Sequence record: PZ386965.1
Length of the DNA: 64,000 bases
DNA from: a phage
Reading direction: 5' to 3' (one strand)
Shown piece by piece: positions 11,799-44,767 of this stretch (positions are counted from its first letter, which is position 1; each line of letters opens with the position of its first letter). The notes under the pieces are model-generated. The model did no database searches, had not been told where the DNA came from, and saw nothing but the letters and a program-made list of their open reading frames with translations. The translations under genes and the position numbers were made by a program.

Positions 11799-11978
11799 TT
11801 AGTAAACGTTATAAAAGTCTCGATGGAAACGCTTATACTGACGAATCATTCTTTTAGTAGGACGAGTTTCTGAAATAATTGAAGTCCTCATATTTGGATT
11901 GTTTGGGGCCCCAATCATAATAAATTTCCAAGATTTTTGACCGTTTGTTCTTTCGCCAAAAAATAACGCAGTTTTCAT
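11799..11978 (-). CDS. small basic protein S1, 59 aa (below ORF-track cutoff)
   Basis: ATG start; MKTALFFGERTNGQKSWKFIMIGAPNNPNMRTSIISETRPTKRMIRQYKRFHRDFYNVY; paralog of 12403..12573. Confidence 0.35.
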   Translation of the reverse strand: MKTALFFGERTNGQKSWKFIMIGAPNNPNMRTSIISETRPTKRMIRQYKRFHRDFYNVY

Positions 11979-11987
11979 AATAAGCCC

Positions 11988-12401
11988 TTAACTTAAACGT
12001 CTTTCTAAATATTCAATGTATTCCGCTGCGGCTTGCATCAGATTGCCTTCATAACCGTCATTATTTTCTTGACCAGCTAATTTAGCTAAAGCATAAGAAA
12101 TACGTTCACCTTCGAATTCGCCAAGTCCACCATCACAAACTACTTGGTCAATTTCTTCGAGTTCGTCTATTGAATGGGATTCCCAGAAGCACCAAAGAGA
12201 AGTATCACGGTCATAGATGCAAAGTTTCTCACCTGTGTTCAACATCACTTCGATAATGCCATGGTCGCCATAACCATCTTCGGTAGTAGTACCAATTACC
12301 TTGATGATTGTTCCTTTCTTTAATTCAGGAAACTTGTCTTGTAGTTCTTCGTCTTCTTTAACAATCTTGAACCATTTACCGCGAGTTTCAGAAATATTCA
12401 T
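11988..12401 (-). CDS. hypothetical protein
   Basis: Trimmed to ATG (MNISETRGKWFK); 137 aa. Confidence 0.45.
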   Translation of the reverse strand: MNISETRGKWFKIVKEDEELQDKFPELKKGTIIKVIGTTTEDGYGDHGIIEVMLNTGEKLCIYDRDTSLWCFWESHSIDELEEIDQVVCDGGLGEFEGERISYALAKLAGQENNDGYEGNLMQAAAEYIEYLERRLS

Positions 12402-12402
12402 A

Positions 12403-12573
12403 TCAATATTCTCTATAAAAGTTACGATGAGAACGTTTAGCTTTGCGAAGCTGACGTTTAGTAGGACGAACTGTAAATGGTTGTCCAGAGAAAAAATTCG
12501 GATCGGTTTTAATAAGCAAACACCAATCATGCTTGCCATTTTTTAATAAACGGTACAATAATTTAACTTGCAT
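12403..12573 (-). CDS. small basic protein S2, 56 aa (paralog of S1)
   Basis: ATG with GAAGAG SD; shares K..W..I....P....RPTKR..R..KR.HR.FY pattern with S1. Confidence 0.35.
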   Translation of the reverse strand: MQVKLLYRLLKNGKHDWCLLIKTDPNFFSGQPFTVRPTKRQLRKAKRSHRNFYREY

Positions 12574-12701
12574 AATAATCTCTTCCCATTTCCATATCAA
12601 TTAATTCATTTATTGAAGGTTCATCATAACATGGTTCTTCGTCGTTGTAAACCGTTTCGACGTCTGGCTCGACAGTCTCCCATCGAGCCGAATACCACGG
12701 T

Positions 12702-13058
12702 TTAACCCCGGAGTTTATTGAGCTCTTCATAATCAATCCAGGATTCTAGCCCTGATGGCAGGTCACATTCAATGTTCCACAGAAGCTCTTCAATGGCTTG
12801 CAGGCGATTATATTCTTCAACGGTAATGGTAACCATTGGTGCAACCGGTTCTGCCTTTTTAACCATCATATCGTTCATCAGGACGTAAAGGTCATCACGA
12901 ACGACAGTGTCGTTCCAACCCCATGATTTGGCTTCGTAAGCTAATGACGAAGGGAGCACATTTAAAACTTCAATAATAGATGGAGATTCAGGACCAAGCT
13001 CTGATACACAAACTTCGTATGCATCTTGGAAATCTTTAAGATTTAATGAATATGTCAT
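12702..13058 (-). CDS. hypothetical protein
   Basis: 118-aa ORF. Confidence 0.45.
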   Translation of the reverse strand: MTYSLNLKDFQDAYEVCVSELGPESPSIIEVLNVLPSSLAYEAKSWGWNDTVVRDDLYVLMNDMMVKKAEPVAPMVTITVEEYNRLQAIEELLWNIECDLPSGLESWIDYEELNKLRG

Positions 13059-13077
13059 TTAAAATATTCTCGCAGTT
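13055..13077. repeat. 23-bp direct repeat copy 1 (TCATTTAAAATATTCTCGCAGTT)
   Basis: Identical to 13370-13392; the pair flanks the single gene 13077..13373. Confidence 0.8.
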
Positions 13078-13373
13078 TATTGTTCTACCCAGGCACAGGA
13101 AACTTCGAAATCAGGACCACCGTATTCCCAGTGATATTCACCAACAGGAATCCAGTCACCGTGCTCGTTTTCTTCGTAGTCTTCAGGTTCAAGACCAACG
13201 AATCGCCATTGAACACCTATGATTCGATTACCCATTAATATACGAAATTCACCCCATGGATTATCGATAGCATATTGGATATCGTTCTTAGCACGAGAAC
13301 ACATTTCTTGATATAACAAAGCTTCTAATTCGCCCTGATCATAAGGGCCCGGGAAAGTTAAATCAATACTCAT
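13077..13373 (-). CDS. hypothetical protein (cassette gene bracketed by direct repeats)
   Basis: 98 aa; ATG overlaps nrdC stop (ATGA). Confidence 0.45.
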   Translation of the reverse strand: MSIDLTFPGPYDQGELEALLYQEMCSRAKNDIQYAIDNPWGEFRILMGNRIIGVQWRFVGLEPEDYEENEHGDWIPVGEYHWEYGGPDFEVSCAWVEQ

Positions 13374-13392
13374 TTAAAATATTCTCGCAGTT
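13370..13392. repeat. 23-bp direct repeat copy 2
   Basis: Identical to 13055-13077; here it encodes the nrdC C-terminus and stop. Confidence 0.8.
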
Positions 13393-13633
13393 GGTCAAAT
13401 CCACCAATATGACTTCCGTCAGGAGCAAATACTTGAGGCATAGTCAATCCAACTTGTGATTCACGTCCAAGCTTAACCAGAAGCTCAGCAATTTTTTCTT
13501 CATCGAATACACCTTTTTCTGGCATAATGTTGATAAATTCAAACGGCTGTTTCTTAACAGTCAGCAATCGTTTCGCATTATCGCAATAAATGCATTTATG
13601 AATAGTAGAGTCATACCCGTACACTTTAAACAT
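13370..13633 (-). CDS. nrdC: thioredoxin NrdC
   Basis: 87 aa from MFKVYGYDS...CIYC; matches recalled T4 thioredoxin; GAAAGG SD. Confidence 0.9.
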   Translation of the reverse strand: MFKVYGYDSTIHKCIYCDNAKRLLTVKKQPFEFINIMPEKGVFDEEKIAELLVKLGRESQVGLTMPQVFAPDGSHIGGFDQLREYFK

Positions 13634-15313: not shown

Positions 15314-15342
15314 ATTATACTCTAACCATCCTTGGTTGTAAA
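15314..15342 (-). promoter_or_regulatory. sigma70-type early promoter (CCAAGGATGG-spacer family)
   Basis: Minus strand TTTACA-N17-TATAAT; spacer contains CCAAGGATGG shared with 16334-16362. Confidence 0.5.
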
Positions 15343-16333: not shown

Positions 16334-16362
16334 ATTATACTCCAACCATCCTTGGTTGTACA
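16334..16362 (-). promoter_or_regulatory. sigma70-type early promoter (CCAAGGATGG-spacer family)
   Basis: Minus strand TGTACA-N17-TATAAT; near-identical to 15314-15342. Confidence 0.5.
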
Positions 16363-17948: not shown

Positions 17949-17975
17949 GTTTTACCTCCAGTAGTTGATAGGTCT

Positions 17976-19413: not shown

Positions 19414-19451
19414 TTTATTCTCCAATTTACTCATTTCGTTTCGATAGGTCT

Positions 19452-19479
19452 ATAGTATCATATCCTAAAAGCATGTACA
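19452..19479 (-). promoter_or_regulatory. sigma70-type early promoter
   Basis: Minus strand TGTACA-N16-TACTAT with TG extension; GATAGGTCTATAGTA core. Confidence 0.45.
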
Positions 19480-19531: not shown

Positions 19532-19798
19532 TTACTTATCACACTTAGCAACATAATTAGGCATATCACAGAATACGGAGCGTGTAACTACTCGACCCTT
19601 TGACCATGCTTCAGTTGCTTGTCCGGCCGTGCTATTAATATAGCTTGATTTGATATTCTCAATACCCTGAGAATGTGATGCATTTACCGAACCGTTAGAA
19701 GGCGCAGAAGACTGGTTACCACCAGCTCCTGTACCTGTGGTAGCACCAACAGAGAATGCCATCATTACTGCGAATAAACCAATTACTAATTTTTTCAT
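19532..19798 (-). CDS. small secreted protein (signal peptide)
   Basis: 88 aa; MKKLVIGLFAVMMAFSVGA signal-like N-terminus; Ser/Gly/Asn-rich. Confidence 0.5.
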   Translation of the reverse strand: MKKLVIGLFAVMMAFSVGATTGTGAGGNQSSAPSNGSVNASHSQGIENIKSSYINSTAGQATEAWSKGRVVTRSVFCDMPNYVAKCDK

Positions 19799-19829
19799 AT
19801 TTACCTCAAGTTAATGGTTATTTATCTAC

Positions 19830-20819
19830 TTATTTATAGTAAGAATTATGATTTTCGAGATAGACTTGCTCAAGGAAATCATCCCAGAAACTCATATCTA
19901 CTTTTTGTTGCATACCATTCTTGGCAGCTTGTTCTGACGCATGTTCAACTTGGTCAACGATATCTTCTAGGAATTCTTGTACAGTTTTAAACGTATGTTT
20001 ACCAAGCTTAACATCGAGAATAAATGGAGCATCTTGAAGTGGGTAAACCAGGTCGCCGGTTTTGTAAATTTCCAATAATTGAAGTCCACCACGACATGCA
20101 TGACTCAATGCTTTCCAGTCAATACCTTCGTTAGCTTCTGCCTTACGAGCACGTTCACCATAGTTCTCTTCTAGTTTAACCAGGATGGCATTGAACTCTT
20201 TATTGGTTAACGTGTCTTGGAATTTACGGTCTAACAGATTATAGAATGTTTGCTTACCTGTTTTCTCGTTTTCGGTTTCAACCCACGAAGCAAATTCACC
20301 TACAGGCAGAACATTCTTCATATGTGATAAACGAATTACTGCACCATTATCAAAGTATTGTCCCCATTCATTAGAACGTTTAAGGGCTTGACGAAGAACA
20401 GCCAGTCGAGAACCCTTGACACCGTATTTAGAAGCTTGCTTACGGACATACCCTAAATAAGATTTCATGTTAGTGGTATAGAAACGAGACCTGTTATCTT
20501 GAATATACTTCCATACATCAGGCAAATCAGATTTAACTACTAGACTTGGTGGAGTGTGAAGCATATCTAATGCGACGGTTTCACCATCCGCAGCTAGTTT
20601 AAAGAAATATTTGAGACTATACAACTCATGGTCTACGTCGTCTTTTGTGTTCTTAGAAGATGTGTTATTCGTGTTCTTGCTCATGTGTTCTTTAACGTTA
20701 CCGGTCAAGATATCACGAGCATGAGGGACATAAATTTCTTTAAAATCGACGTCAGATTCAGGAGTAGACGTTCCATAAAGGTGGCTACCAAAGTAGCTTT
20801 TCATAATTGTTTTCATCAT
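19830..20819 (-). CDS. nucleotidyltransferase-fold protein (Pol-beta superfamily signature)
   Basis: 329 aa; FGSHLYGTSTPESDVDF matches [GS]-x10-D-x-D minimal NTase motif; start uncertain among several ATGs. Confidence 0.5.
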   Translation of the reverse strand: MMKTIMKSYFGSHLYGTSTPESDVDFKEIYVPHARDILTGNVKEHMSKNTNNTSSKNTKDDVDHELYSLKYFFKLAADGETVALDMLHTPPSLVVKSDLPDVWKYIQDNRSRFYTTNMKSYLGYVRKQASKYGVKGSRLAVLRQALKRSNEWGQYFDNGAVIRLSHMKNVLPVGEFASWVETENEKTGKQTFYNLLDRKFQDTLTNKEFNAILVKLEENYGERARKAEANEGIDWKALSHACRGGLQLLEIYKTGDLVYPLQDAPFILDVKLGKHTFKTVQEFLEDIVDQVEHASEQAAKNGMQQKVDMSFWDDFLEQVYLENHNSYYK

Positions 20820-24001: not shown

Positions 24002-24210
24002 TTAGGTTCACCTTCTTTAACGAAATCTGGGTAAGGGTAAAATCCTGAGTAAAATCCTTCACCTTTATGATTGCTACAACCTTTGTTCGAACAGTAACAC
24101 CAATAATCAAAATCACAAGCCATTTCGTCATTGCATAAAGCAAAAACTACAGGCCATTCGCATTTTTCGCATTTAGCACCTGTAAGAATTTTTGTTTGGC
24201 TCATAACCAT
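23998..24210 (-). CDS. cysteine-rich small protein
   Basis: 70 aa with about 10 Cys (CEKCEW...CNDEMACDFDYWCYCSNKGC). Confidence 0.4.
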   Translation of the reverse strand: MVMSQTKILTGAKCEKCEWPVVFALCNDEMACDFDYWCYCSNKGCSNHKGEGFYSGFYPYPDFVKEGEPK

Positions 24211-24428
24211 GTCACCTTTAAGCAGTATTCTTCTACATGCTGTTTACGACCTTTCTTATCAATAAAGGTATATTCAACGAATGTTCCAATGTAGTCTTTA
24301 TCTACGTCATGTGGACTATTAATTGGACATTTAGTACGACAAATGCGTTCCCATTGACGAATAATTACTGCTTTATTTTTAGGATCAAACGGATGTGGGT
24401 AATGCACATTCATAATAATGGTTCCCAA
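24201..24428 (-). CDS. hypothetical protein
   Basis: 75-aa ORF. Confidence 0.4.
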   Translation of the reverse strand: MGTIIMNVHYPHPFDPKNKAVIIRQWERICRTKCPINSPHDVDKDYIGTFVEYTFIDKKGRKQHVEEYCLKVTWL

Positions 24429-28423: not shown

Positions 28424-28753
28424 TTATACTCTAGGCTTTTGAGCTTGTTTGGTATTGGATTCCCATGCGGCTTTGGTAATTTTGTTAGCGGCATAACCAA
28501 AGGCATTAGATAGAACACCTTTAGAGTTGAATACATCCAATCCAATAAGTACACCGGCTGCGTTAAATTTAGGAGCAAAGTACGCATTAGTTTTAGAAAG
28601 AGCTTTTTTCAATTCAGGGTCTTGAACCAAGCCATCAAAAACGCCTTTACTATTTACTTTATATGTTACTTTGGGATTCTTACCTTCTTCGATAGCAGCT
28701 TTCTGTTCCGCAGATAATGTAACTTCAGTGATAAACTCCTGATATGTTTTCAT
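28424..28753 (-). CDS. internal protein (capsid-targeting sequence MKTYQEFITE)
   Basis: 109 aa; N-terminal MKTYQEFI..E leader typical of T4 IPI/IPII/IPIII precursors processed by the gp21 prohead protease. Confidence 0.6.
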   Translation of the reverse strand: MKTYQEFITEVTLSAEQKAAIEEGKNPKVTYKVNSKGVFDGLVQDPELKKALSKTNAYFAPKFNAAGVLIGLDVFNSKGVLSNAFGYAANKITKAAWESNTKQAQKPRV

Positions 28754-28778
28754 TTTGTTCCTATTGTTTTAATTTATG

Positions 28779-29093
28779 TTATTCTTTAGGGAAGTTTTTA
28801 GAGTATGCATCATAAAGTTTATTACCAATACGACGGAAGACTTTAGCTGCAAAACGGTTTTCAGGGTTTTTAATCATGATTTGCATCATGTAAGTTCCTG
28901 CATCCGAAAGAGCTTCTTCATAGTACCCATTAATTTCTTTAAGAGTCCTACGTTTACCACCAGGACCGTCAACAGTAATTTTCCATTTACCTGTAGAAGT
29001 GCGGCTCGGTGGCTCAACTTGTTCAATCCAAATATAACCACCTTCAACGCGTTGGTTGGCGGATTCTGCAATAAATTCTTTATACGTTTTCAT
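28779..29093 (-). CDS. internal protein (capsid-targeting sequence MKTYKEFIAE)
   Basis: 104 aa; CTS leader; own early promoter at 29125-29154. Confidence 0.6.
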   Translation of the reverse strand: MKTYKEFIAESANQRVEGGYIWIEQVEPPSRTSTGKWKITVDGPGGKRRTLKEINGYYEEALSDAGTYMMQIMIKNPENRFAAKVFRRIGNKLYDAYSKNFPKE

Positions 29094-29124
29094 TTTTTGT
29101 TTCCTTGTTTGTTTTGATAGAGTA

Positions 29125-29154
29125 ATTATACCATATTAATACTTAAGCGTAAAC
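29125..29154 (-). promoter_or_regulatory. sigma70-type early promoter
   Basis: Minus strand GTTTACG-N17-TATAAT upstream of internal-protein gene. Confidence 0.5.
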
Positions 29155-29157
29155 AAT

Positions 29158-29418
29158 TTAAGCTTTACCTCCAGAAATAATTCCGAAGTTGTTAAAATCG
29201 TATCCAATATCGTCAACATCTACTTTAGGACTTACTACAACATAAGCAATTTCACTACGTTTTGCATAGGTGTTGATTTCTTTACCATCGCCACCTAAGA
29301 AAGAATACCCATTACGTTTTAATGAGCCAAAGTCTTCCGCATCACCAATGAAAGCTTTAACTTTAAATTTGGGGTCTTTGGCATCTGCTTCAATGATAAA
29401 TTCTTGATACATTTTCAT
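29158..29418 (-). CDS. internal protein (capsid-targeting sequence MKMYQEFIIE)
   Basis: Trimmed to ATG with AAGGA SD; 86 aa. Confidence 0.55.
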   Translation of the reverse strand: MKMYQEFIIEADAKDPKFKVKAFIGDAEDFGSLKRNGYSFLGGDGKEINTYAKRSEIAYVVVSPKVDVDDIGYDFNNFGIISGGKA

Positions 29419-29425
29419 TTTTTCC

Positions 29426-29839
29426 TTAGTAAATTGATTTACCATAGTATTTGTACCAAGACGGCCGTTGAGCAATTTTTTCATCTAAGCGTGCTTGACT
29501 TATCGCAATGGACGCTTCGGACGGGACGTAATTATTACGAAATTCTACAGGAATGTCGGAAATATCCTGGACAGTCGTGTCCTTGATTTTGAAACCACGT
29601 TTCAAGCATTCAGCGATTAGCTCGATTTGACGTAAACGTAAAAATTCGAGTTTGTCGTAAAAGAATGTTACGTGACCTGTGCCTAAGATAAATGTTGGAG
29701 AGATTTTAAAATCCTTTACACGTTTACCGTTTTGAACATGTTTACGGACTGCACCAAATACGCGTGGTAATTCACGATACTCGGCCATAAGATGTTGGTC
29801 GGCCAGTTCAGAAACAAGTGTTAAATTGATACGGGTCAT
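29426..29839 (-). CDS. denV: endonuclease V (pyrimidine-dimer DNA glycosylase) DenV
   Basis: 137 aa from [29 protein letters not shown]; matches recalled T4 DenV. Confidence 0.95.
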
Positions 29840-29866
29840 AATTTCCTCCAAGTAGTTGATGAATGT

Positions 29867-29896
29867 ATAGTATCAAAACTCTTGGAGGAAGTAAAC
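29867..29896 (-). promoter_or_regulatory. sigma70-type early promoter upstream of denV
   Basis: Minus strand GTTTAC-N18-TACTAT. Confidence 0.4.
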
Positions 29897-29897
29897 A

Positions 29898-30179
29898 CTA
29901 TTTTTCTGAAGCGCCTGAAATATATTTTTCAAGACGTTGTTTCATCAGCGAGCCGTTCTTAGCAATTTCTTCCGGTTTATCGCACATGCGCAACAATGCT
30001 TCAAGCTTAACGATATCACTGGTACGTTCAAATTTGCGAGTATCTATCTTACTAGCAAGTTCAGAAATACGTGCTAATAGACTTTCAGCTTCAACCAAAG
30101 CTGCACCTAGCTTAGTTGCAAATGTGTCAGTAGCTTCGTTAAGAATAGATTCTGATAAAAATTCACTATATGTTTTCAT
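29898..30179 (-). CDS. internal protein (capsid-targeting sequence [10 protein letters not shown])
   Basis: Trimmed to ATG; start codon overlaps lysozyme stop (ATGA); 93 aa. Confidence 0.55.
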
Positions 30180-37021: not shown

Positions 37022-37270
37022 TTATTTGTACGAATTAATAATCTCTTCCATTTTATCCAGAACATGGATATCGATTATACGAGGAAGTGCCGAAAGATTA
37101 GAACCGTCGAAAGATTTAAGGTCTTCCAAAATAATATTTTCAATGGCCTTTAAAGCTTCCGCAGATTCTGATGCAGAATTAAATTCAGGAATTTCTCCAA
37201 AAAGACGTAAGAATGAACCAAAGTATTCTGCGGCGATTTCTTTAGCTTGTTCGATATCAGACTTAAACAT
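37022..37270 (-). CDS. hypothetical acidic protein
   Basis: Trimmed to ATG (MFKSDIEQAK) with GAGGA SD; ORF-track start overlaps promoter. Confidence 0.4.
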   Translation of the reverse strand: MFKSDIEQAKEIAAEYFGSFLRLFGEIPEFNSASESAEALKAIENIILEDLKSFDGSNLSALPRIIDIHVLDKMEEIINSYK

Positions 37271-37298
37271 TTTGTTTTCCTCATTTGTTGGTGGAGTA

Positions 37299-37327
37299 AT
37301 CATATCACCATCCTTGGCGTTTGTACA
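37299..37327 (-). promoter_or_regulatory. sigma70-type early promoter (CCAAGGATGG-spacer family)
   Basis: Minus strand TGTACA-N17-TATGAT; spacer contains CGCCAAGGATGG. Confidence 0.4.
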
Positions 37328-40768: not shown

Positions 40769-41056
40769 TTACAGAAGAGTTTTTGCAATAATTTTAAGTT
40801 GAGCTACAGAAATATGCTTAGCTTTAAACAGTGCGGTCTCTTCAGCCGGAGAGATAACAATAGTAGCGCCATCTTTCTTAGCAGACCATCCATCCCCTAA
40901 GTAAACAGTACCTTTTACTTCTTCGCCGTCAACCAGACTAATCATTGGTTTACCCTCACGGCCTTTGTTTGCTTTAATAACTTCGGAAGTAAGGGTTGCT
41001 TCGGTCAGAGTAGAAACGTTAGCAACAGGTGATATAAATTCTTTATAGGTTTTCAT
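40769..41056 (-). CDS. internal protein I-like (capsid-targeting sequence MKTYKEFI)
   Basis: 95 aa; CTS leader; position between tRNA region and 57B matches T4 ipI. Confidence 0.6.
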   Translation of the reverse strand: MKTYKEFISPVANVSTLTEATLTSEVIKANKGREGKPMISLVDGEEVKGTVYLGDGWSAKKDGATIVISPAEETALFKAKHISVAQLKIIAKTLL

Positions 41057-41090
41057 TTTATTTCCTTGAGGTTGTTTATTTGATAGGATG

Positions 41091-41120
41091 ATAGTAACAC
41101 ACCATCATCCTTATGTAAAC
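41091..41120 (-). promoter_or_regulatory. sigma70-type early promoter with stem-loop
   Basis: Minus strand GTTTACA-N17-TACTAT; GGATGAT/ATCATCC inverted repeat. Confidence 0.45.
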
Positions 41121-43298: not shown

Positions 43299-44120
43299 TT
43301 AAGATTTCCAAACAGTATTCGCGGAGAAACGTTTTCCTTTTGACATAAACTGCTGAGTAGGTAACATGATTATGTTAGCCCAGTCTTTAGGAGCTATTTC
43401 TGTTATTGTTCCTCTAATGTGGCCTGGCAGGTATGCTTTAATCATTTTGTCAGCACCTTGAAATCCTTTCACCTTGCTCCAGTCTATCTTCAACTTCGTG
43501 TTATTAGTAATAGTAGTTGTGCTAGCATATTGCTTCAGCAATTCTTCAAGAAACTGTTGTCGTGCTTTAGGTGGGATATAGTGCAAGTTTAACCCATACA
43601 TCAAATTATGTTTACCCAATCCTAAATAAATAATCAAAGGATATCTGTCCCAATACGGCAGAGTATCTTTATGTTTAGCATCATACACGTAAGTATAAAT
43701 TTTGCCTGGCGTAGGCTTGACTACTTTATGACCTTTTACACTTTTCTTAATTGTTTCAACAAACCACTTAGATGATTTGTTGTTTACTGCTGCGCCTTCA
43801 TTTCTAATCTTTTCTCGTATTGAACTGCGAAACGAGTTTATCATCAGAAGTTGACGTTCTTGCTTATTAAGTTTATTTTTAGGTTTAGATTCAAGCGTTT
43901 CAATTTTCTGTGCAGTCTTAATAGATGATGCATATCTAGACATTGCAGATGTAAACGACGAGTATTTTATTCCTTTTGATTCTGCAAATGCTTTTGCAGT
44001 GATTCCTTTCTCTTTAGCTTTCTTGTATTCTAATCCTATCTCAATCCATTTTCTTTCATTCATAGACTGAGCAATCTTAGGGGCTTGTACGCCTTCAGAT
44101 ATAATTTGGAATATGCTCAT
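43299..44120 (-). CDS. 2: DNA end-protector protein gp2
   Basis: 273 aa; length and position as T4 gp2. Confidence 0.8.
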
Positions 44121-44767
44121 TCAACTTTCCTCATTTTACAATTATCACCATGCCAACGTTTATAAGGCGCAGGTTTACATTCTATACCGCAGTATTGGCA
44201 TATCTTATTAGGAGTATTTAAGTATCCTAATCTCATGTTTTCCTTTTCTTCAGGAGTTCTATTTCGTCCCGTAAGAGTATTTTTTATTTTGTCTCTAATC
44301 TCTTTAGGCATTATCCTGCCTCGGCCTGCTTTACCTATTTTAGCTTTATGCTCTTCGGATAATTTCTTACCCTTCTTAGCTAAACTCATTTTCTTTTTAG
44401 ATTCTTCGGAAATAGGACCTAATTTTCTACCTCTGGATGAATCGCCTATTCTTTTTCGCACATCAATAGAACGGCCTCGTCCTCCCTTTCCTCCTAGGTC
44501 TATATTATATGTATCTTCTCTATCCACAAAAGATTGATCAACTAATTCTGCTTCCTTTTGGAAAGCCATTTCTTCATTTAGTAATTCGTCACCGGTATCA
44601 TACACATATAATACTTCTTTTACAAAATTATCTAATCCGTATTTAGCATGGGCTTTTAAGATAATTTTACCTGTTCCTTTATAAGAATCATCCGGGTTAT
44701 TAGTTTTATGAACACCTATATAAATTTTATTATTTACGATGTTAGTTATTTTATATACAGTATACAT
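44117..44767 (-). CDS. GIY-YIG homing endonuclease (seg-like) with C-terminal zinc-finger module
   Basis: 216 aa; N-terminal [16 protein letters not shown] (GIY...YIG) with conserved R and E; C-terminal CQYCG...KRWHGDNCK module shared with the HNH gene at 127-843; wedged between genes 2 and 4 with overlapping stops and starts. Confidence 0.75.

Follow-up and report, generated by a model that had tools for sequence, protein, structure and literature searches.

A duplicated nrdC end flanking a gp49.3-family gene cassette in RB69-like phages

Described systems and the nrdC locus

In phage T4, the DNA between repeats of about 10-25 bp that are separated by a few hundred base pairs can be deleted precisely, and duplications arise by unequal exchange; deletions and duplications between short direct repeats were reportedly the subject of work on T4 rII by Singer and Westlye in 1988. 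The locus considered here is a perfect 23-bp direct repeat that brackets a single 98-codon gene, directly downstream of nrdC, in a 64,000-nucleotide stretch of phage DNA (sequence record PZ386965.1; "the window" below means this whole stretch). It has the anatomy of a direct-repeat indel: empty alleles differ from filled ones by exactly one repeat copy and the insert, and one of the two copies is native to its setting and the other out of context. Whereas the rII deletions are laboratory mutations in one gene, however, the nrdC locus is a natural polymorphism of long standing, and a translation start signal lies within its repeat. We favor the possibility, to which we give a probability of roughly 0.75, that a single unequal crossover, off-register and illegitimate, between two collinear T4-like genomes left the 23-bp repeat behind as its junction scar.

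The modular theory of lambdoid phage evolution, said to have been set out by Susskind and Botstein in 1978, places "linker" sequences at module boundaries. The end of nrdC is like these linkers in being a short conserved gene-boundary sequence that may act as an exchange point between divergent modules, and it precedes at least five different genes. The linkers belong to a different phage group, however, and at nrdC the second copy goes back to one identifiable duplication.

The intergenic early-promoter and stem-loop motifs known as PeSLs, together with the ORFan cassettes that they flank (PMC2839356, PMC4122927), resemble the nrdC locus in several respects: the accessory genes are small, they lie in a hyperplastic T4-type region between short flanking direct repeats, they are present or absent among close phages, and the proposed driver is phage homologous recombination acting on short homology. 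PeSLs, however, occur in many copies per genome and make each cassette transcriptionally autonomous, whereas the nrdC repeat is a unique duplication of a coding end. The 23-mer holds neither the -35 nor the -10 hexamer of a T4-type early promoter (GTTTAC ... TAtaaT), and no promoter-like site lies on the coding strand at either copy. As to a hairpin, the 23-mer is unstructured (0 kcal/mol) and the 91-nt contexts of its two copies fold like shuffles (z-scores of +0.85 and +0.22). No inverted repeat or terminator-like site was found at the repeats, and there is no dispersed motif of the PeSL kind, the 64 kb holding just two copies of the 23-mer, one of them coding sequence within nrdC. With its defining features absent, the nrdC repeat is not a PeSL. 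The window does contain about nine PeSL-like motifs elsewhere, all on the minus strand, near 17961, 19437, 22131, 32880, 34172, 37782, 38155, 40721 and 41076; these combine an early promoter (GTTTAC ... TATAGT) and an embedded hairpin of 9-10 bp (for example GATAGGACTA..TAGTCCTATC) with a following Shine-Dalgarno sequence and ATG.

Morons, as PMC2839356 presents them after Hendrix et al. (2000), are single extra genes lying between residents, presumably placed there by illegitimate recombination, and the nrdC locus shares with them the addition of one gene between two resident genes. Morons arrive with a promoter and a terminator and in many cases lie antisense, whereas the 98-aa gene has neither, is co-oriented with its neighbours and is translationally linked to them. 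The nrdC cassette is a clear new example of known phage plasticity; it represents no new kind of element and leaves the current picture of T4-type genomes unchanged.

The repeat, its cassette and the empty sites

The window comes from an RB69-like T4-type phage of the genus Mosigvirus, and the closest match to this region is Shigella phage SHSML-52-1 (97.5%). All genes of the nrdC region are on the minus strand, and the parts of the locus are as follows, R1 and R2 denoting the two copies of the 23-mer.

13370..13633, minus strand: nrdC, a phage glutaredoxin/thioredoxin of 87 aa read from MFKVYGY; thioredoxin domain of phrog_22; annotated nrdC in RB69, T4 and others
13370..13392, minus strand: R1, the native 23-mer copy, made up of nrdC codons 82-87 (LREYFK), the TGA stop and the ATG of the 98-aa gene
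13077..13373, minus strand: 98-aa gene of the gp49.3 family, the variable cassette; phrog_4203, E=1e-46
13055..13077, minus strand: R2, the duplicated nrdC 3' end, between the stop of the 98-aa gene and the start of the 118-aa gene
13055..13369 (equivalently 13078-13392), minus strand: 315-bp present/absent unit, one repeat copy plus 292 bp, from alignment to empty alleles
12702..13058, minus strand: 118-aa downstream gene, phrog_11244, corresponding to RB69ORF092c plus ORF091c
12563..12736, minus strand: gp49.1 homologue, the conserved right-hand anchor of the variable segment

The repeat, TCATTTAAAATATTCTCGCAGTT, which reads AACTGCGAGAATATTTTAAATGA on the coding (minus) strand, occurs as two exact copies at 13055-13077 and 13370-13392 with a start-to-start spacing of 315 bp, just as the sequence-only reading of this DNA had described it. 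There is no third copy in the window, even at 3 mismatches, a match was found in 0 of 100 dinucleotide-preserving shuffles of the sequence, and among perfect direct repeats of at least 23 nt it is the sole one in the window whose copies lie no more than 3 kb apart. All 13 other cassette-bearing genomes examined carry the repeat at the same positions, and it is therefore no assembly artefact.

Read in the direction of transcription, R1 takes in the second and third bases of a Gln codon, then the six nrdC codons L-R-E-Y-F-K and their TGA stop, with which the ATG of the 98-aa ORF overlaps. The earlier description of the upstream copy as the nrdC C-terminus with a stop/start overlap is correct along transcription, which on the minus strand makes the copy at 13370-13392 the upstream one. 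R2 begins with the final A of the TAA stop of the 98-aa gene and ends in ATGA, the start codon of the 118-aa ORF plus the first base of its codon 2. The downstream copy does give the next gene its ATG context, as had been proposed, but it is not strictly intergenic, its first base sitting in the TAA stop. Because the LREYFK* end of nrdC and the ATGA overlap are conserved in T4, in Moon-like phages and in all Mosigviruses, R1 is the native copy and R2 the duplicate. R2 is non-coding and out of context, and it gathers changes that would be non-synonymous in nrdC; the GAG in R1 and that in R2 are both marked as ribosome-binding sites in the record of phage Mizar.

The gene between the copies belongs to the gp49.3 family, both by homology to T4 gp49.3 (42% identity, 1e-17 by tblastn) and by its position directly downstream of nrdC. 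A BLASTp match to gp49.3 is also noted for the homologue in the Mizar record, and the nearest homologues outside Mosigvirus, in Moon-like phages of Citrobacter, are 63-64% identical. The protein has no Pfam domain and no PDB relative, and phrog_4203 is a family of unknown function. Between cassette subtypes we counted 19 synonymous and 5 non-synonymous nucleotide differences, with 3 amino-acid changes, a pattern that points to a real gene under purifying selection. In T4 as well, 49.3 stands directly 3' of nrdC with an ATGA overlap, so that the left junction reflects the usual gene order and the novelty is confined to the right one. The scan for promoters and terminators returned matches at background level only, and at neither repeat copy was there a promoter, terminator, hairpin or RNA family; the cassette therefore relies on read-through transcription and on an inherited start region. 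An RNA element at the repeat was considered and dropped, Rfam having given only a chance-level miRNA match, without structure. About 17 nt from R1, in the 5' end of the cassette gene, there is a palindrome, GGGCCCGGG (13345-13353), which is broken in subtype-II cassettes, where it reads CCCTGGCCC; PMC2839356 mentions GGGC/GCCC motifs at T4 deletion endpoints, after Mosig et al. (1998).

Alignment with RB69 and PhAPEC2 revealed exact empty sites, in which a lone 23-mer links nrdC to the counterpart of the downstream gene; a single copy is likewise present in the empty sites of mar005p1, NHEP29 and others. When an artificial empty-site version of the window was used as the search query, relatives fell into two classes, giving either one block that spanned 1386 bp or two blocks that spanned 1701 bp (1386 + 315), and these classes were interleaved by similarity to the window. 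Among GenBank phages, which form the base of the survey, the 98-aa gene was found at 90% identity or more in 57 records, and the full query of nrdC, cassette and 118-aa gene was also covered by 57 records, so that the cassette gene is found only at this locus. About 74 GenBank records, RB69 included, are exact empty sites with one repeat copy. IMG/VR gave 4 loci for the 98-aa protein and 4 for the 20-mer, and the sample compared at the sequence level consisted of 14 filled genomes and 10 empty alleles (RB69, PhAPEC2 and 8 others). The 315-bp unit is a clean two-state presence/absence cassette. Empty alleles of the kind anticipated from the window do exist, in RB69 and some 70 other records, and the situation that would have spoken against a cassette, namely the gene without flanking repeats and no empty alleles, is the opposite of what was seen, with repeats in all 14 filled genomes sampled.

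In some phages a divergent 111-aa allele stands in place of the 118-aa gene. The two genes begin to diverge at the first base past ATGA, and their 5' ends are unalignable; the start region of the 118-aa gene is R2 in the window and the nrdC 3' end in empty-site genomes. Junction-specific searches gave the following approximate counts, which include records duplicated between RefSeq and GenBank as well as twelve near-clonal LF82 isolates.

Filled, 118-aa gene downstream: 43
Filled, 111-aa gene downstream: 14
Empty, 118-aa gene downstream: 53
Empty, 111-aa gene downstream: 21

The empty/filled polymorphism marks the 98-aa gp49.3-family gene as dispensable, and both states are abundant in sequenced phages.

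The perfect match of the two copies in the window might be taken for a fresh duplication, but the other genomes rule this out. R2 carries one or two substitutions in 7 of the 14 filled genomes examined, reading ACCTGCGAGAATATTTTAAATGA or ACCTGCGAGAAAATTTTAAATGA; the drifted form in other filled genomes is ACCTGCGAGAA[T/A]ATTTTAAATGA, and R2 of filled subtype-II phages with the 118-aa gene begins ACCTGCGAGAAAATTTT. The drifted bases, C at position 2 and A at position 12, would each replace a residue of NrdC (Gln to His, Tyr to Asn). None of these changes occurs in R1, in which we saw a synonymous CTG/CTA polymorphism that is present in filled and empty genomes alike. Cassette subtypes are 6-10% apart, as against 3-4% for the flanks. 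Since R2 has drifted and cassettes have diverged by up to 10% in other genomes, the duplication is old within Mosigvirus.

Founding of the repeat and its later use

The composition of R2 bears directly on the order of events. R2 is nrdC coding sequence fused to the start of the downstream gene, and only empty-type genomes have these two side by side; the present filled allele must therefore be younger than an empty-type junction. Given that R2 was made from a junction of nrdC with the downstream gene, the repeats are the product of the gain and not its cause, and the earlier suggestion that they mediated the original gain has to be abandoned: a piece of nrdC welded to the downstream gene requires a prior empty junction.

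A plausible scenario would involve one parent with the T4 arrangement, a gp49.3-type gene right behind nrdC, and a second with the arrangement of RB69 and PhAPEC2, in which the 118- or 111-aa gene takes that place. The crossover would have joined the first parent, broken just past the stop of its 49.3-type gene, to the second, broken 23 nt short of the nrdC end. The resulting recombinant would have had an intact nrdC, an intact 98-aa gene and, before the downstream ATG, 19 nt derived from nrdC that supply a GAG Shine-Dalgarno sequence and an AU-rich spacer. Presumably, only joints that spared the downstream translation start region yielded phage still expressing the downstream gene. From then on the 23-bp patch could have served as short homology for the general recombination system of the phage; T4 recombination is described in PMC2839356 as needing only small patches of homology, of less than 50 bp (Singer et al. 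1982, cited therein). Recombination between R1 and R2 would also remove the cassette precisely and restore the empty site. Loss of the cassette by this route is plausible, and it may also be that present-day empty sites are simply the older state. With flanks that are 95-97% identical, ordinary homologous recombination in nrdC and the downstream genes suffices to move the cassette between genomes.

Several observations weigh against a single founding crossover. Specifically: (i) a donor genome with nrdC, this 98-aa gene and then something else was not found, homologues outside the genus being only 63-64% identical, and the founding cross is therefore reconstructed and not observed; (ii) in Moon-like phages a relative of the C-terminal half of the 118-aa gene comes next after the 49.3 homologue, and the order of 49.3 and then a 118-like gene may be older than the scar, which would imply a loss followed by a re-gain; (iii) the joint lies exactly at the stop codon, with zero extra bases, which is unusually neat for a random illegitimate event, and no obvious microhomology was found there; (iv) no pair of genomes identical but for the cassette was found, which bears on the putative repeat-mediated deletion; and (v) in Mizar and TH12 the R2 variant tracks the downstream gene and not the cassette subtype, which the simple model does not predict. 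A shared CAA was considered as microhomology at the founding joint and does not fit the observed sequence.

It is possible, though we think it doubtful, that the filled state is ancestral in Mosigvirus and that all or most empty sites are recurrent deletions, arising by R1/R2 recombination or by replication slippage. The order of nrdC, 49.3 and a 118-like gene does resemble the synteny of T4 and the Moon phages, both types of downstream gene have empty sites, and a parallel repeat-mediated deletion has removed pin some 600 bp away. Empty and filled alleles also occur with near-identical flanks: over 270 nt of left flank there are 0 differences between RB69 (empty) and p000v (filled), and over 400 nt of right flank there are 2 between FP43 (filled) and mar005p1 (empty). 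Pervasive homologous recombination accounts equally for these common flanks, however; flanking haplotypes are unsorted by empty/filled state, a mixture that fits such recombination and neither proves nor excludes recurrent deletion. Moreover, R2 needs an empty-type junction between nrdC and the 118-aa gene, so that at least one empty genome must be older than the filled allele, and the R2-type bases that deletions in subtype-II phages would be expected to leave in nrdC were seen in 0 of 10 empty alleles, although selection could purge them.

Returning to the junction scar that we favor, its later use as a crossover site is shown by the distribution of downstream genes. All four combinations of cassette presence or absence with the 118- or 111-aa gene exist. 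In LF82-9 the cassette is identical to that of the window at 292 of 292 positions and R2 is perfect, and past the ATGA of R2 there follows the 111-aa allele, identical to PhAPEC2 at 418 of 423 positions. The four haplotypes, together with divergence that sets in right after ATGA, require at least one exchange inside the 23-mer beyond the founding one, which would have set the cassette before the alternative 111-aa gene. This extra exchange could have been either an unequal crossover of R2 with the single copy of an empty genome or an independent deletion between R1 and R2. Mizar and TH12, which are filled and carry the 111-aa gene, represent further independent lineages with other cassette subtypes (II and a III-like mosaic). 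Comparing R2 and the cassette 3' end among Mizar (L027), TH12 (L028), FP43 and p000v (L019/L023) and phiC120 (L020), we found nrdC-type R2 before the 111-aa gene and drifted R2 (ACC..A) before the 118-aa gene in subtypes II and III. The breakpoints of Mizar and TH12 lie within the 15 nt between the last subtype-specific site of the cassette and position 2 of R2. This clustering at R2 is suggestive, three lineages being too few for statistics. The proposal that the gene is gained and lost by way of its repeats accordingly survives in part: the cassette is real and at least one crossover has taken place in the 23-mer after its formation, but the gain was not repeat-mediated.

Could the 23-mer be something more than a scar? 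One can imagine a dedicated, pre-existing recombination or docking motif, a promoter-less PeSL or an analogue of the integron attC site, with the 98-aa gene as a mobile unit. Empty sites hold exactly one copy of the 23-mer, the nrdC end and ATGA precede at least five unrelated genes (98-, 118-, 111-, 71- and 55-aa) in different phages, the three independent filled lineages with the 111-aa gene break within at most 38 nt at R2, and there is a second junction duplication at the same boundary in phage MM02. Set against this, R1 is ordinary conserved nrdC coding sequence, and the 23-mer has no other copies in the window and in IMG/VR occurs solely at nrdC ends (4 loci). The cassette is at the nrdC locus in 57 of 57 records, no hairpin, promoter, recombinase or inverted repeat was found, and selection alone predicts boundaries at gene ends. 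We consider a dedicated motif quite improbable. It is also unlikely, in our judgment, that the nrdC 3' end with its ATGA is a recurrent, favored docking junction, that is, a promoter-less and translation-coupled counterpart of the PeSL that captures new genes among T4-like phages. If that were true, duplications of gene ends with translation starts would be a general and predictable sign of gene gain in operon-embedded phage regions.

A single ORF between direct repeats could also suggest a target-site duplication or another footprint of a transposon, homing endonuclease or other selfish element, and Seg-like genes do occur elsewhere in the window (44117-44767) and, by annotation, adjoining 49.3 in some relatives (VR7, DK-13). 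This reading is effectively refuted and we give it almost no credence: the 98-aa protein contains neither a transposase or integrase domain nor one of a nuclease (GIY-YIG, HNH or LAGLIDADG) and has no PDB relative, the gp49.3 family is conserved and holds this same position in T4, terminal inverted repeats are absent, and a 23-bp duplication far exceeds typical target-site duplications. A chance match or assembly artefact, for which only the AT-rich composition speaks, is so improbable as to be negligible, given the absence of a match in the shuffles and a structure present in 57 independent GenBank records from many laboratories.

PMC2993671, reviewing T4-related genomes, remarks that junctions of imported DNA lack recognisable mobile-element signatures and offer few clues to the agents of transfer. 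If the repeat is indeed the scar of an unequal crossover, the nrdC locus would be an unusually legible case, in that a piece of nrdC travelled with the downstream gene, so that the direction of the founding event can be read, and in that re-use of the scar as a crossover point is demonstrable. It would also point to a constraint on gene gain in a co-transcribed, translationally coupled string of genes, where a surviving joint spares one stop and the next start region. Furthermore, the 315-bp difference in PCR product size could provide a natural assay for short-homology recombination in RB69-like phages.

Neighbouring genes, other indels and boundary repeats

Along the direction of transcription the genes of the region are nrdC.7, nrdC, the 98-aa gene, the 118-aa gene, 49.1, a 56-aa DUF7279 gene, pin, a 59-aa DUF7279 gene and gene 49 (endonuclease VII). 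The 118-aa protein has no match in Pfam or the PDB and belongs to a PHROGs family of unknown function; its C-terminal half carries the PHROGs label "antitoxin". In Moon-like phages (L008-L010, 2277-2954) nrdC is followed by a 69-aa gene, a 49.3-like gene and a 66-aa gene, the last related to the C-terminal half of the 118-aa gene. Phages of the Ec2-ASingh type (L004, 1828-2216) lack 49.3 and have nrdC followed by a 71-aa gene and a 69-aa gene with the same C-terminal module as the 118-aa gene; the 71- and 69-aa ORFs are fused in one IMG/VR contig (L030). Modularity extends to the downstream gene, whose N-terminal half varies and whose C-terminal half, antitoxin-like by PHROGs, is conserved. 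Its RB69 copy (L001, 1828-2185) is annotated as two ORFs, ORF092c and ORF091c, and has a 1-nt insertion relative to all other genomes, which is either the mark of a frameshift pseudogene or an early sequencing error.

Two further boundaries in this neighbourhood show comparable rearrangements. The first is at pin, which encodes the Lon protease inhibitor (11988-12401) and lies between the DUF7279 paralogues at 11799-11978 and 12403-12573; these share a stretch of 56 nt at 73% identity. SHSML-52-1 and phiE142 lack pin together with the greater part of the second paralogue (L002 2628-2800, L007 3301-3480), with about 604 bp lost at a distance of 600 bp from the nrdC cassette, and one hybrid small ORF remains whose joint is in a shared ACTTTTATA. 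The loss of pin is a repeat-mediated deletion by crossover between the flanking paralogues. The second is in MM02 (L005 1810-2035), where a hydrophobic-looking 55-aa ORF stands between nrdC and a T4-like 49.3, bracketed by a duplicated TTYAAATGATTGA junction. The junction copies read TTCAAATGATTGA at the end of nrdC and TTTAAATGATTGA at the end of the 55-aa ORF, and there is a third, partial copy, ATGATAGAATTAA, at the start of 49.3. It repeats, at this very boundary, the type of duplication seen with the nrdC cassette.

When 48 kb of the window were compared collinearly with RB69, six clean single-gene indels emerged, among them the nrdC cassette with its 23-nt nrdC tail. Two of the others are specific to RB69: RB69ORF102c, a 278-bp gene with a 19-nt PeSL-like direct repeat flanking it in RB69 and an empty site at window positions 19437-19461, and RB69ORF156c, a 373-bp gene next to ipI with a 16-nt flanking repeat that covers the gene start (MKTY...; window ~41034-41100). 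The three inserts specific to the window, at 19534-19832 (302 bp), 24009-24420 (415 bp) and 37027-37319 (306 bp), have junctions with 5-6 nt of microhomology. Short repeats at gene boundaries, of several origins, are thus the common currency of indels in these genomes, which agrees with the account in PMC2839356 of T4 recombination as content with small patches of homology and goes some way to meet the remark in PMC2993671 on how little such junctions reveal of mechanism.

At 28724-30179 the window contains four tandem small genes with a common conserved 5' end, ATGAAAACATATCAGGAGTTTATC (MKTYQEFI...), which is probably the leader that targets T-even internal proteins to the capsid. Between gene 2 and gene 4, on the minus strand at 44117-44767, there is a 216-aa ORF that is absent from RB69 and gives weak matches to GIY-YIG SegE and NUMOD3; it is probably a Seg-like free-standing homing endonuclease. 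Finally, a 27-nt direct repeat (96% identity) at 15314-15340 and 16334-16360, with copies 1020 bp apart, lies over a strong promoter-like site, TTTACA-17-TATAAT, upstream of nrdC.3 and may bracket another single-gene unit.

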